This document shows, piece by piece, positions 31,350 through 32,896 of a stretch of 64,000 nucleotides of DNA. Where the stretch lies: IMG/VR virus record IMGVR_UViG_2671180921_000012. One strand, 5' to 3'. Each line of letters begins with the position of its first letter. The first letter of the stretch is position 1. Both the position numbers and the translations under genes were made by a program. The notes beneath the pieces are model-generated. The model worked only from the letters and a program-made list of their open reading frames with translations, did not search any database and was not told the origin of the DNA. The DNA comes from a virus. Its lineage: Duplodnaviria; Heunggongvirae; Uroviricota; Caudoviricetes.

Positions 31350-31814
31350 CAGGGTTTTCGTCATGGTTAGCGACTTTGCGGCGGTTTAGAAACTGACCAT
31401 TAAAGTAAATGCAAACGATGATCTGATGATGGTAGCGGCCTAAGAAGCCAGACGCCACGGGGTATGAGTCGTCCCCCGTCAAAAAATCGACCGCAGAGTG
31501 TCCCCGTCTGTGTATTAGGGAACGGGGAGGCACAACAGGTAAGGGCGCTGGTGTGATTAACCAGATGAACGAGAAGGGGCCATCTGTTGGTCAGCGTCCT
31601 TTCCTGTTGCGTCTTCTTTTCAGCGTAACAGCGGTGCTTAACAGCACTTTGGGTACAGTTCCACGAATTTACGGGTATATCCCGTCATGCTGAAAGCGCT
31701 AATCACGCTGGAAGCCAGGGTTATGCATCCCCTGTTACCGAATTGCAGCCAGGGCGCGGTGCGCCGAAAAGCATACGGAGGTGGAAGCCCTCGCCGGAGA
31801 CGTACCCGGCAAGT

Positions 31815-31890
31815 GATGGTGTAGCTCAGCGGTTAGAGCGGTTGACTGTTAATCAACGGGTCGATGGTTCAAATCCATCCACCATCGCCA
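31815..31890 (+). tRNA. tRNA-Asn (anticodon GTT)
   Basis: Cloverleaf folds manually: acceptor GATGGTG/CACCATC, anticodon loop CTGTTAA, T-loop TTCAAAT, encoded CCA. Confidence 0.85.
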
Positions 31891-31892
31891 AT

Positions 31893-31968
31893 GCCGGTTT
31901 AGCTCAGTTGGTAGAGCGCCTGCCTTGTAAGCAGGATGTCAGCGGTTCGATTCCGTTAATCGGCACCA
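31893..31968 (+). tRNA. tRNA-Thr (anticodon TGT)
   Basis: Acceptor GCCGGTT/AATCGGC, anticodon stem CCTGC/GCAGG with loop CTTGTAA, T-loop TTCGATT, encoded CCA. Confidence 0.85.
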
Positions 31969-32896
31969 GCACAACAGGTAAGGGTATTTTGCGACGTCGG
32001 AGATCGCCGAGCTTGGCAGAGGGTTCGAATCCCTACGAAGTACCCTTACCGTTGTGATGAATGCGCAGGCTGATGCGCGAAAGACATTGCAGCTATTGCG
32101 GAAAAGAGCTGTTCGGCGGGGCAATTAAACGCCCGTGAGAGTCTGAAATAACCGCAAGCCGGAGATCAGCACCGGTCATCACAACACAACAGGTAAGGGC
32201 ATTCTCCCTTATGGGGCTTGGCTTAAATGCATCGAGTGCTCTTACCGTTGTGATGAAGTGCAGCTCTTTGAAGCAACCAGAAGATAAGCATCTGGCTTCA
32301 CAACATAAACCGCAGGAACGACCAATAAACGGTAGTCCGTATGGAGAACACCCCGTTGAGGAAGAGGCCTGGCCGGAACCGTAACCGGCACTACAACGTT
32401 GAGAACACTGGCGTAACGGGGTCATATCCCAATCTACGAATAAATGTTGCGTTGCAGCGTGATAACCAGTGTTCTCAACATTGTGGTGAATGCACAGGCT
32501 GATGTGCCGCAACTACAGTAGTGCGCGCTTTGCGGGGCTTGCTACAACCCTGTGTCGGAGTTCAGCACCGACCATCACAGTTTGATTCTCTGGCATGAGC
32601 ATAACGCTGAAATAAGTCCAGTCTGGTGCGGCCCGATCACCCGCCGTTAGCTCCACGAAACGGAGCACGTAACAGGTAAGAGCATTCTCCTGTAACGGGT
32701 TCATATCCCAATCTACAGGTCCACCAAGAATGCTCTTTCCGTTGCGGTGAATGCGGCTAAGCGCACGCGGGGAAATGGTTATATCAGTCCATTCATTTCT
32801 CCTTGTTTCCCCGTCCACGGTGGATAACCAGCCAAAGGACACCGGGAGGCACCCGGCACCGCAGCTTTTTTATTCGTTAAATAATGGAGTGAGAGG

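Follow-up and report, generated by a model that had tools for sequence, protein, structure and literature searches.

The five long hairpins that punctuate a non-coding stretch of a P1-like phage-plasmid (IMG/VR record IMGVR_UViG_2671180921_000012, analysed as a window of 64,000 nucleotides, nt) are real, evolutionarily maintained RNA structures, and they lie in a widespread, unannotated island of the phages of enteric bacteria. The hairpins – here called A units, U1 to U5 – share this island (31352–32871, plus strand throughout) with two true transfer RNA (tRNA) genes, with tRNA-shaped folds that we call B domains, and with a module at the 5' end that looks like a phage copy of the tag-coding element of transfer-messenger RNA (tmRNA). 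The order is tag module, A1, spacer X, tRNA-Asn, tRNA-Thr, A2-B2, A3-B3, A4-B4 and A5-B5. The explanation that we favour, at a probability of roughly 40%, is that the island is a polycistronic precursor of tRNA-related small RNAs, in which the A hairpins are processing or insulating stems. Over this region the window matches phages RCS47 and vB_EcoM-813R1 at 99.6–99.7% identity. An original prediction, made from the letters of the window, had confined the feature to 31531–32766 and had missed the B domains, the terminal STnc100-like small RNA and the tag module; the feature actually runs from 31352 to approximately 32871.

Evidence that the A units are maintained as RNA came from folding, from a covariance model and from comparison with relatives, the first two being checks that the original prediction had itself suggested. 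All five hairpins are present in the same orientation, as predicted, and on the plus strand only. Each folds at −36 to −55 kcal/mol; measured against dinucleotide shuffles, the z-scores run from −3.7 to −5.6, and none of 200 such shuffles folded as well. A covariance model (R1) built from 60 relatives matches exactly five units in the 64 kb, all on the plus strand, at 39–84 bits (38.9–83.9; E-values 3e-17 to 3e-7), and the reverse-strand echoes of these units score 11.5–38 bits lower. The expectation that the stems keep pairing while their sequences change was likewise borne out: in the alignment of 60 relatives 94% of cells are paired, and 12 of the 19 stem pairs have changed on both sides. 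Neither the percentage paired nor the covariation score was reached by any of 500 shuffles, and sliding the pairing partners against one another lowers pairing to 30–56%. The A stems are thus under selection for pairing.

The scaffold common to these units is a stem of 19–25 bp whose base is fixed (CACAAC/GUUGUG) and in which one U.U mismatch, one U.G wobble and one bulged A are all conserved. Its arms are shared (5' CACAAC(A)GGUAAGAGCAUUG ... CAGUGCUCUUUCCGUUGUG 3'); the interior, 35–65 nt long, is exchangeable and wholly different between units. A search with the pattern of the stem base found, among the matches listed, at least 120 viral contigs and at least 87 distinct units. Rfam 15 holds no family for the A hairpins, even at E ≤ 10, and the scaffold is therefore an uncatalogued RNA family. 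Because the U.G wobble is conserved and scores on the opposite strand are lower, the structure is a strand-specific RNA.

Strand specificity bears directly on two other accounts, both of which we regard as extremely improbable: that the units are repeats acting at the level of DNA (attC-like sites, miniature transposable elements or single-strand initiation hairpins), or that the stretch encodes the minus-strand proteins Plp and Upl. A conserved base around a variable centre does superficially resemble an attC site, but on inspection the sequence at the base, (G)CACAAC/GTTGTGG, departs from the attC core sites RYYYAAC/GTTRRRY, the conserved U.G wobble becomes a C.A mismatch on the other strand, and the units are always oriented with transcription and with the tRNA genes. 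Conserved arms flanking a variable centre are, moreover, the opposite of what a miniature transposon would display. As to coding, the annotations of P1 and RCS47 do lay minus-strand open reading frames (ORFs), plp and upl, over U2–U5; against this, the lengths of the units are not divisible by three, neither ORF has a Pfam domain, and ORF lengths shift with insertions and deletions of modules. The plp and upl ORFs are probably not genes. Their counterparts in the window (32093–32512 and 32513–32842, minus strand) are antisense to conserved RNA units, and the ORFs mEp460_036 and mEp460_037, together with small ORFs in phages Magnus and nithesis, look like the same artefact.

Within this common scaffold the individual units differ. 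U1 (31531–31611; z-score −5.6; 38.9 bits in model R1) is a long hairpin that lacks the GUGAAUGC tail. The interior of U2 (31970–32056; 83.9 bits) has the appearance of the top half of a miniature tRNA, with a 7-bp helix (UAUUUUG/CGAAGUA), a hairpin and a T-arm (AGGGUUCGAAUCCCU), but the helix runs on into the long stem and leaves no free end. U3 (32185–32253; 55.4 bits) is missing from P1 itself. U4 (32389–32488; 66.3 bits) and U5 (32666–32749; 60.8 bits) each enclose a hairpin with a CAU loop (ACGGGGUCAUAUCCCAAUC and ACGGGUUCAUAUCCCAAUC, respectively). The suggestion that every unit encloses a T-loop-like hairpin holds for U2 only, which alone among the five carries the canonical T-arm sequence (GGGTTCGAATCCC / GGGUUCGAAUCCC); the hairpins of U4 and U5 (GGGKTCATATCCC) are not T-loops, and U1 and U3 have neither motif. 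The GGGKUCAUAUCCC hairpins of U4 and U5 are instead a separate conserved motif with an anticodon-like CAU loop, of the form stem-AC-GGG-NYCAUAW-CCC-AAYC-stem, whose outer stem occurs as six covarying versions. In some relatives this motif has a core that reads GGGCUCAUAACCC, which we take to be positions 29–41 – the anticodon stem-loop – of the E. coli initiator tRNA-fMet. An interior of the U2 type, with its T-arm, also follows tag modules in loci L263, L318 and L336.

These interiors raise the possibility – an unlikely one in our judgement – that the A hairpins are effectors, decoys or aptamers in which the stem lends stability and presents a variable, tRNA-mimicking cargo (a T-arm, or an initiator-like GGG-CUCAUAA-CCC stem-loop); this cargo would bind or titrate tRNA-modifying or tRNA-processing enzymes, anticodon nucleases, VapC-type defence toxins or the ribosomal P site. 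Hypervariable interiors between near-identical scaffolds are in keeping with such a role, as is the recurrence of the T-arm GGTTCGAnTCC in at least four independent interior types, far above chance. So too are the retention of the CAU-loop hairpin within six different covarying outer stems, its presumed match (GGGCUCAUAACCC) to the initiator tRNA, and the occurrence of the family in both temperate and virulent phages, which fits a function directed at the host. Yet many interiors bear no resemblance to tRNA, the Rfam tRNA model matches none of them, complementarity to neighbouring phage sequence is not detectable, and the argument is one of resemblance. In the window only tRNA-Asn, tRNA-Thr and tRNA-Met(CAU) are called as cloverleaves, and no A or B unit matches RF00005 even at E ≤ 10. 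A separate candidate, that the interiors are antisense to nearby phage sequence, was rejected: their longest complement averages 8.22 nt, as against 8.24 nt for shuffled sequence.

A central issue for the view that the island is a precursor of tRNA-related RNAs is the nature of the sequence between the A hairpins. The original prediction had remarked on a tail at the end of most units (GTGRTGAAKKGC; GTGRTGAAKGC) and on a short GCRCA-loop-TGYGC hairpin. Both are real – after U2 and U4, with variants after U3 and U5 – but they are part of the next domain rather than of the unit they follow: the GUGRUGAAUGC motif and the GCRCA hairpin form the start of a separate, tRNA-shaped B domain. In its layout, a 7-bp closing helix (UGUGGUG/CACCACA) is followed by a 3-nt linker, by a D-like hairpin (GCGCA-GGCUGA-UGCGC) and, past a centre that varies, by a T-like hairpin (GCCGG-AGAUCAGCA-CCGGC), which in the folds abuts the closing helix directly. 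Across 60 relatives the closing helix is 98–100% paired, and the D-like and T-like hairpins, along with a kissing interaction between their loops (GCUGA/UCAGC), lie above all 500 shuffles; the kiss also occurs as a doubly compensated variant, GUCGA/UCGAC. The T-like loop of some relatives is GGGUUCAGCUCC, near to a true T-arm. Differences from tRNA are nonetheless clear: a B domain has no anticodon arm in the canonical place, no encoded CCA and no G3.U70, its D and T loops pair by five to six Watson–Crick pairs and not by elbow contacts, and tRNA finders miss it. A hammerhead ribozyme or a C/D-box k-turn, which the motifs CUGAUGA and GUGAUGA might bring to mind, was rejected by inspection; there is no Rfam match to either, conservation does not extend to the GAAA element, and the C box is broken in GUGGUGA, which is the majority variant.

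B2 (32053–32183) has the closing helix UGUGAUG/CAUCACA, a D-like hairpin at 32063–32078 and a T-like hairpin at 32158–32176 around its variable centre, as judged from its fold and from pair statistics in the 60 relatives. B4 (32482–32579), recognised through direct repeats and the same statistics, is closed by UGUGGUG/CAUCACA and places these hairpins at 32492–32507 and 32554–32572. B3 (32250–32304) is a miniature, whose T-like hairpin (CCAGA-AGAUAAGCA-UCUGG) is followed by CUUCACAAC; it belongs to direct-repeat family D2, and its assignment as a B domain is weaker than that of the others. The last, B5 (32743–32871), has a core like that of the small RNAs STnc100 and PasD, with a closing helix UGCGGUG/CACCGCA followed by GC and UUUUUU. 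Positions 32743–32863 match the Rfam STnc100 model (RF02076) at 37.8 bits, under the gathering score of 47, and align to model positions 31–147; the U-run follows at 32866–32871, and the architecture of the family is present. A full STnc100 (52.9 bits) occurs in the equivalent island of Klebsiella phage Magnus (L248, 4069–4283).

The likeness to STnc100/PasD extends over the 7-bp helix (UGGUG.../...CACCA), the GAAU that follows it, a hairpin, a variable centre and a last hairpin abutting the helix. B2 to B4 differ in having no terminator and in the sequences of their hairpins, and the A hairpins fall wholly outside the family. STnc100 and PasD are validated, Hfq-dependent prophage small RNAs (PasD by RIL-seq and Northern blots; PMC8550237), and PasA is cut from a longer transcript (PMC8550237; bioRxiv 10.64898/2026.05.13.724894). 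The B domains extend this known family of small RNAs towards an origin in tRNA.

The setting of the island is informative as to its expression. Homology to annotated P1 puts the C1-controlled promoter/operator Pban/Op72 upstream of it and the helicase gene ban downstream; a single non-coding unit, it makes up the untranslated leader of the ban operon, which C1 represses. A scan of 31000–33200 found no promoter-like site, where shuffled controls average 2.6, and with Pban/Op72 upstream the region would most simply be transcribed by read-through from Pban. The original suggestion of a C1-controlled transcript is upheld by this homology and by the lack of an internal promoter-like site. A strong intrinsic terminator (31323–31349, from a terminator scan) nevertheless separates Pban from the island. 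It lies only some 190 nt past that promoter, at the end of what P1 annotation names the 'dicF-like region' (window 31257–31349); because of its position, expression of ban must read through it.

Leaders of this kind invite the idea that the hairpins act as processive antiterminators, like the put RNAs of HK022, and would allow RNA polymerase to pass the terminators of long phage leaders. Units are indeed found in leaders that need read-through – after PL in mEp460 and in locus L016, after tR' past Q, and in the ban leader. But they sit downstream of the terminator that would need to be suppressed, and the family is found as well in the tRNA clusters of virulent phages, which have promoters of their own. 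The A unit is, in addition, a single long stem with a junction, as opposed to the two-stem shape of put RNAs, which are about 70 nt long and lie at or near the start of the transcript (PMC9378689). We consider a put-type role very improbable.

The two tRNA genes, tRNA-Asn (GUU; 31815–31890) and tRNA-Thr (UGU; 31893–31968), are called by both ARAGORN and Rfam; they are interleaved with the hairpins as had been noted, both lying between U1 and U2, and the CCA end of tRNA-Thr stands 1 nt before U2. Ahead of them spacer X (31612–31814) folds into several small hairpins, the last of which is a T-like hairpin (GCCGGAGACGUACCCGGC) placed 4 nt before tRNA-Asn. Part of the spacer (31612–31700) has a fold z-score of −2.6, and its 3' module is found also ahead of an A unit in locus L079. 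Mimicry of Y RNA (YrlA, RF02553) was considered and rejected, the only Rfam match (27 bits) being an artefact that spans the two true tRNAs.

How these components might work together can be put as follows. Upon derepression of the prophage the island would be transcribed as one precursor, stringing together the tag module, the two true tRNAs and the tRNA-shaped B domains with their variable centres – the last of them an STnc100/PasD-type small RNA – with the five A hairpins between. Cutting or opening of an A hairpin would then free the 3' end of the neighbouring tRNA and allow the B domain to fold; candidate enzymes are RNase III, acting in the long duplex, and/or RNase P, acting at the A/B junction. 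Two features suggest this role for the A stems. They start 1–10 nt after the CCA end of a tRNA or after a terminator, which points to processing or insulation. Further, the 3' arm of an A unit overlaps the closing strand of the next B domain by 4 nt (UGUG): as read from the sequence, with these nucleotides shared the A and B helices cannot both be complete, and cleavage or opening of A would thus be expected to release the tRNA end and let B fold. Among the roles originally proposed, that of tRNA-derived pseudo-elements fits best, given the tRNA-shaped tails, the T-arm-like and anticodon-like interiors, and the pseudo-tRNA or true tRNA found in the same slot of relatives.

Parallels with known systems exist on both counts. 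With phage tRNA clusters the units share a tRNA transcription unit, tight spacing and pieces resembling T-arms and anticodon arms, and the B domains share a tRNA-like geometry; the tRNA region of T4 also carries extra stable RNAs, species 1 and 2. Processing stems for RNase III are known from the R sites of T7, the N leader of lambda and the stems of ribosomal RNA. Like these, the A units are long, near-perfect duplexes that flank or separate stable RNAs in one precursor, and their 19–25 bp, with one bulge and one mismatch, match the duplex of about 20 bp of an RNase III site. They differ in the strictly conserved base, the bulged A, the U.U mismatch and the large structured interior, and cleavage is a prediction.

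Several observations weigh against the proposal of a precursor with processing stems. The strong terminator separating Pban from the island makes expression of the island dependent on read-through, and 96 of the 167 A units lie in fetched stretches that contain no tRNA. The nucleases named above are guesses; in length the A stem is at the minimum for E. coli RNase III, and its conserved mismatch and bulge resemble a specific recognition site. Nor would a bare processing stem require a structured interior of 40–65 nt. Some interiors are conserved motifs – the CAU-loop hairpin with its six covarying outer stems, and the recurring U2-type T-arm – and for this reason at least some A units may be expected to do more than mark cut sites.

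A units are widespread in other genomes. A 41-nt probe taken from the 3' arm finds matches in 209 phage records, virulent phages included. Virulent carriers comprise Bas80 (which we take to be Drexlerviridae-like), Ackermannviridae (Magnus) and Schitoviridae (nithesis), in which the unit occupies non-coding stretches adjoining tRNA genes. In species-representative genomes a pattern scan gave 120 matches, approximately 95 of them chance occurrences in unrelated phyla; the 25 with paired arms were kept, and these genuine copies are mostly from Enterobacterales. The stretch from U2 to U3 (31960–32300) is matched in 1,314 of 5,426 complete E. coli genomes. In loci that hold a tRNA, the nearest one is co-oriented with the unit in 71 of 71 cases, 19 A units start no more than 10 nt from the 3' end of a tRNA, and 58 of the 167 begin just past a run of T. 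Phage D6 has an A unit directly after tRNA-Ser, a Klebsiella phage has one after Q and tRNA-Thr, and lambdoid phages have them either in the interval from Q/tR' to the holin gene or, as in mEp460, in the leader of PL. The slot that follows CCAGATTGC in lambdoid Q-holin leaders is occupied by either a tRNA or an A unit, and in locus L024 (~6599–6667) a degenerate tRNA with a CCA end comes after an A hairpin.

P1 is without one A/B module of 215 nt that is present in the window and, at about 98% identity, in lambdoid phages, and because of this we infer that modules move by recombination between the repeated arms. Positions 32045–32187 (143 nt, B2), about 98% identical to lambdoid and Shiga toxin (Stx)-converting phages and missing from P1, are evidence of recent exchange of modules between unrelated types of phage. 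Such traffic might suggest that the array is mostly evolutionary debris: decayed copies of tRNA and tmRNA and the scars of recombination in a hot spot of exchange where structured RNA does no harm. Gain and loss of modules between repeated arms (P1 versus the window, tRNA-Tyr in Ro157c2YLVW, tRNA-Ser in D6) is what this account predicts, pseudo-tRNAs do stand in equivalent slots of relatives, and the region from Q to the lysis genes is a classic lambdoid hot spot for accessory genes ('morons'). Against it stand the observations with which we began. Neutral decay would not preserve pairing through many compensatory changes, and is disfavoured by the covariation; the base of the stem, the mismatch and the wobble are invariant across several phage families and host genera; and the tag module, discussed below, maintains a frame of ten codons with codon-type variation. 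We consider debris an improbable explanation of the array.

The tag module (31352–31530), which is unannotated, emerged as a conserved block ahead of U1 from comparison with Bas80 and nithesis. Its assignment draws on sub-threshold matches to the Rfam models tmRNA_permuted and beta_tmRNA, on an alignment (A2), on a pseudoknot and on homologues. The module consists of a leader (GGGUUUUCG...GCGACUUUGCGG...UAGAAACUGACC), a tag frame, a stop-loop hairpin, an H-type pseudoknot and one more hairpin, whose loop is GUGUAUUAGGGA. The tag frame (31411–31443) reads GCA AAC GAU GAU CUG AUG AUG GUA GCG GCC UAA, or ANDDLMMVAA*. It has neither a start codon nor a Shine-Dalgarno sequence, and an in-frame UAG lies eight codons upstream; U at −5 and A at −4 are as in E. 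coli tmRNA, whose tag is ANDENYALAA. The features of a tmRNA tag frame – no start codon, a GCN resume codon, the appropriate context and a hydrophobic end in ..AA – are thus all found here.

Variation among homologues has a pattern that looks like the signature of a decoded sequence. The frame is exactly ten codons long in 92 of 103 tag modules, and over 31 nucleotide variants the first, second and third positions of the codons have entropies of 0.66, 0.38 and 0.98, respectively. Codons for Ala, Asn, Asp and Val show synonymous changes, each of the three stop codons is in use, and variant tags include ANDDVVLMAA, ANDEQFLAVA, ANEEMYLAVA and ANDNVFLAVA. The stop codon lies in the loop of a hairpin that is 80% paired, and the H-type pseudoknot that follows is 98% paired, with all four of its four pairs changed on both sides. 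Upstream of the tag, nothing equivalent to pseudoknot PK1 was identified. Sequence related to the module is present in 630 phage records from several families and is almost never annotated. A putative second class of tags ('ANDPNSRINKSLR...') was rejected, these being the C-termini of ordinary proteins.

The module therefore resembles tmRNA – whether encoded by ssrA, permuted or borne by a phage – in its GCA resume codon, its U at −5 and A at −4, its ten-residue AND..AA tag, its stop-loop hairpin and its pseudoknot, and we think that it looks like a phage copy of the tag-coding element. The difference lies in the tRNA-like part: no such domain was found from the two ends of the RNA, the window offers none with G3.U70 or CCA, the tag stands 5' of the tRNA-like elements, and the module goes undetected by ARAGORN and at Rfam thresholds. 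No canonical tRNA-like domain was found in the window by ARAGORN at its default settings or with '-ps'; at an 80% threshold the program returned only implausible, poorly paired tRNA-like halves without CCA.

Other phages offer candidates for the missing part. In the Felixounavirus EC6 (L251, NC_027369, ~1064–1150) a mini-tRNA that ARAGORN does not call lies about 150 nt past the tag ANDNVFLAVA*; with its acceptor CGGGGCG/CGCCUCG, G3.U70, T-arm and ACCA end it is a candidate alanine-accepting partner of the tag module. Elements like tRNA with CCA ends, likewise uncalled, lie 3' of the tag in SFP10 and in loci L315 and L332, and elements with a T-arm, NCCA and long or unusual central regions, again uncalled, are found past the tags of L315, L332 and L333 and in L024. 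The tRNA clusters of phages seem to include non-canonical tRNA-like genes as a class. In Salmonella phage FSL SP-076 (L253, ~860–905) a T-arm-like hairpin followed by ACCA (UUAGGUUCAACUCCUAA-ACCA) occurs just upstream of a tag module, an arrangement that recalls the gene order of permuted tmRNA.

Might the whole island, then, serve trans-translation? One form of this idea makes the A and B units components of, or partners in, a non-canonical phage tmRNA system whose tag is decoded by trans-translation. The partner – which would be a B domain, a T-arm-bearing A unit or the CCA-ended mini-tRNA seen in other phages – would supply the tRNA function or block SmpB-tmRNA, with the outcome that proteins on stalled ribosomes receive a phage degron or that ribosome rescue in the host is sabotaged. 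The constancy of ten codons, the variation at third positions, the synonymous changes, the resume context, the placing of the stop codon within the loop of a hairpin, and the covarying downstream pseudoknot all argue in favour, as do matches to Rfam tmRNA_permuted, alpha_tmRNA and beta_tmRNA at 24–29 bits at the tag in four phages, the A hairpin that comes directly 3' of 54 of 88 modules, and the CCA-ended elements of EC6, SFP10, L315 and L332. Each of these matches is below threshold, however, the tmRNA models overall scoring 14–29 bits and always under their gathering scores. Alignment to E. coli ssrA is not significant: the best local alignment falls always on the tag, with a score not above that of shuffled controls. 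ARAGORN finds no canonical tRNA-like domain in the window, the B domains have no encoded CCA and no G3.U70, a tag 5' of its tRNA-like elements is unlike any known tmRNA and RNase P would be expected to separate the parts, and A/B modules are common with no tag module nearby. On balance we judge this role for the A and B units to be unlikely.

A broader formulation, which we advance as doubtful, is that P1-like phage-plasmids and many virulent enteric phages carry an unannotated, non-canonical two-part tmRNA system, in which a decoded tag (here ANDDLMMVAA) would be joined through hairpins to tRNA-shaped partners. The groups concerned, named with the same reserve, would be Felixounavirus, Ackermannviridae, Schitoviridae and the presumed Drexlerviridae-like phage. 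Under this formulation the five hairpins would be structural linkers, and the phage would re-tag stalled products or disable host rescue – a conjecture that we hold just as tentatively. In their accessible parts, phage tmRNA lists name only mycobacteriophages and Bacillus phage G (PMC4131195), and the 2025 tmRNA database counts 79 phage sequences (PMC11915505). Our search of the literature for A-unit sequences or for tmRNA-like elements of phages found nothing relevant.

Two further features of the window deserve mention. Beyond the island, positions 33114–33941 encode a 275-amino-acid SPFH/Band 7 protein (E = 1e-30), labelled 'putative serine protease' in RCS47, which replaces the tciA-C genes of P1; an ORF of 78 amino acids precedes the gene and tRNA-Met(CAU) (33969–34044) follows it. 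Elsewhere, at 11068–11274 and 14723–14897, Rfam matches at the gathering threshold are to the C4 antisense RNA, its a1/b1 targets and the sok antitoxin RNA, all of which are expected for a P1-like element.

P1, a well-studied model phage, carries about 1.5 kb of conserved structured RNA beneath two doubtful minus-strand ORFs (plp and upl). Phage tRNA clusters contain more than tRNAs. The A scaffold is a new RNA family, absent from Rfam 15 and present in hundreds of phage genomes. The B domains tie the validated prophage small RNAs STnc100 and PasD to a tRNA ancestry, and the design of a scaffold with a variable centre could account for the diversification of such small RNAs. The tag module, if functional, would be a new variant of tmRNA-like sequence; should it prove to act in trans-translation, it would represent a new form of tmRNA and a new route by which phages manipulate ribosome rescue.

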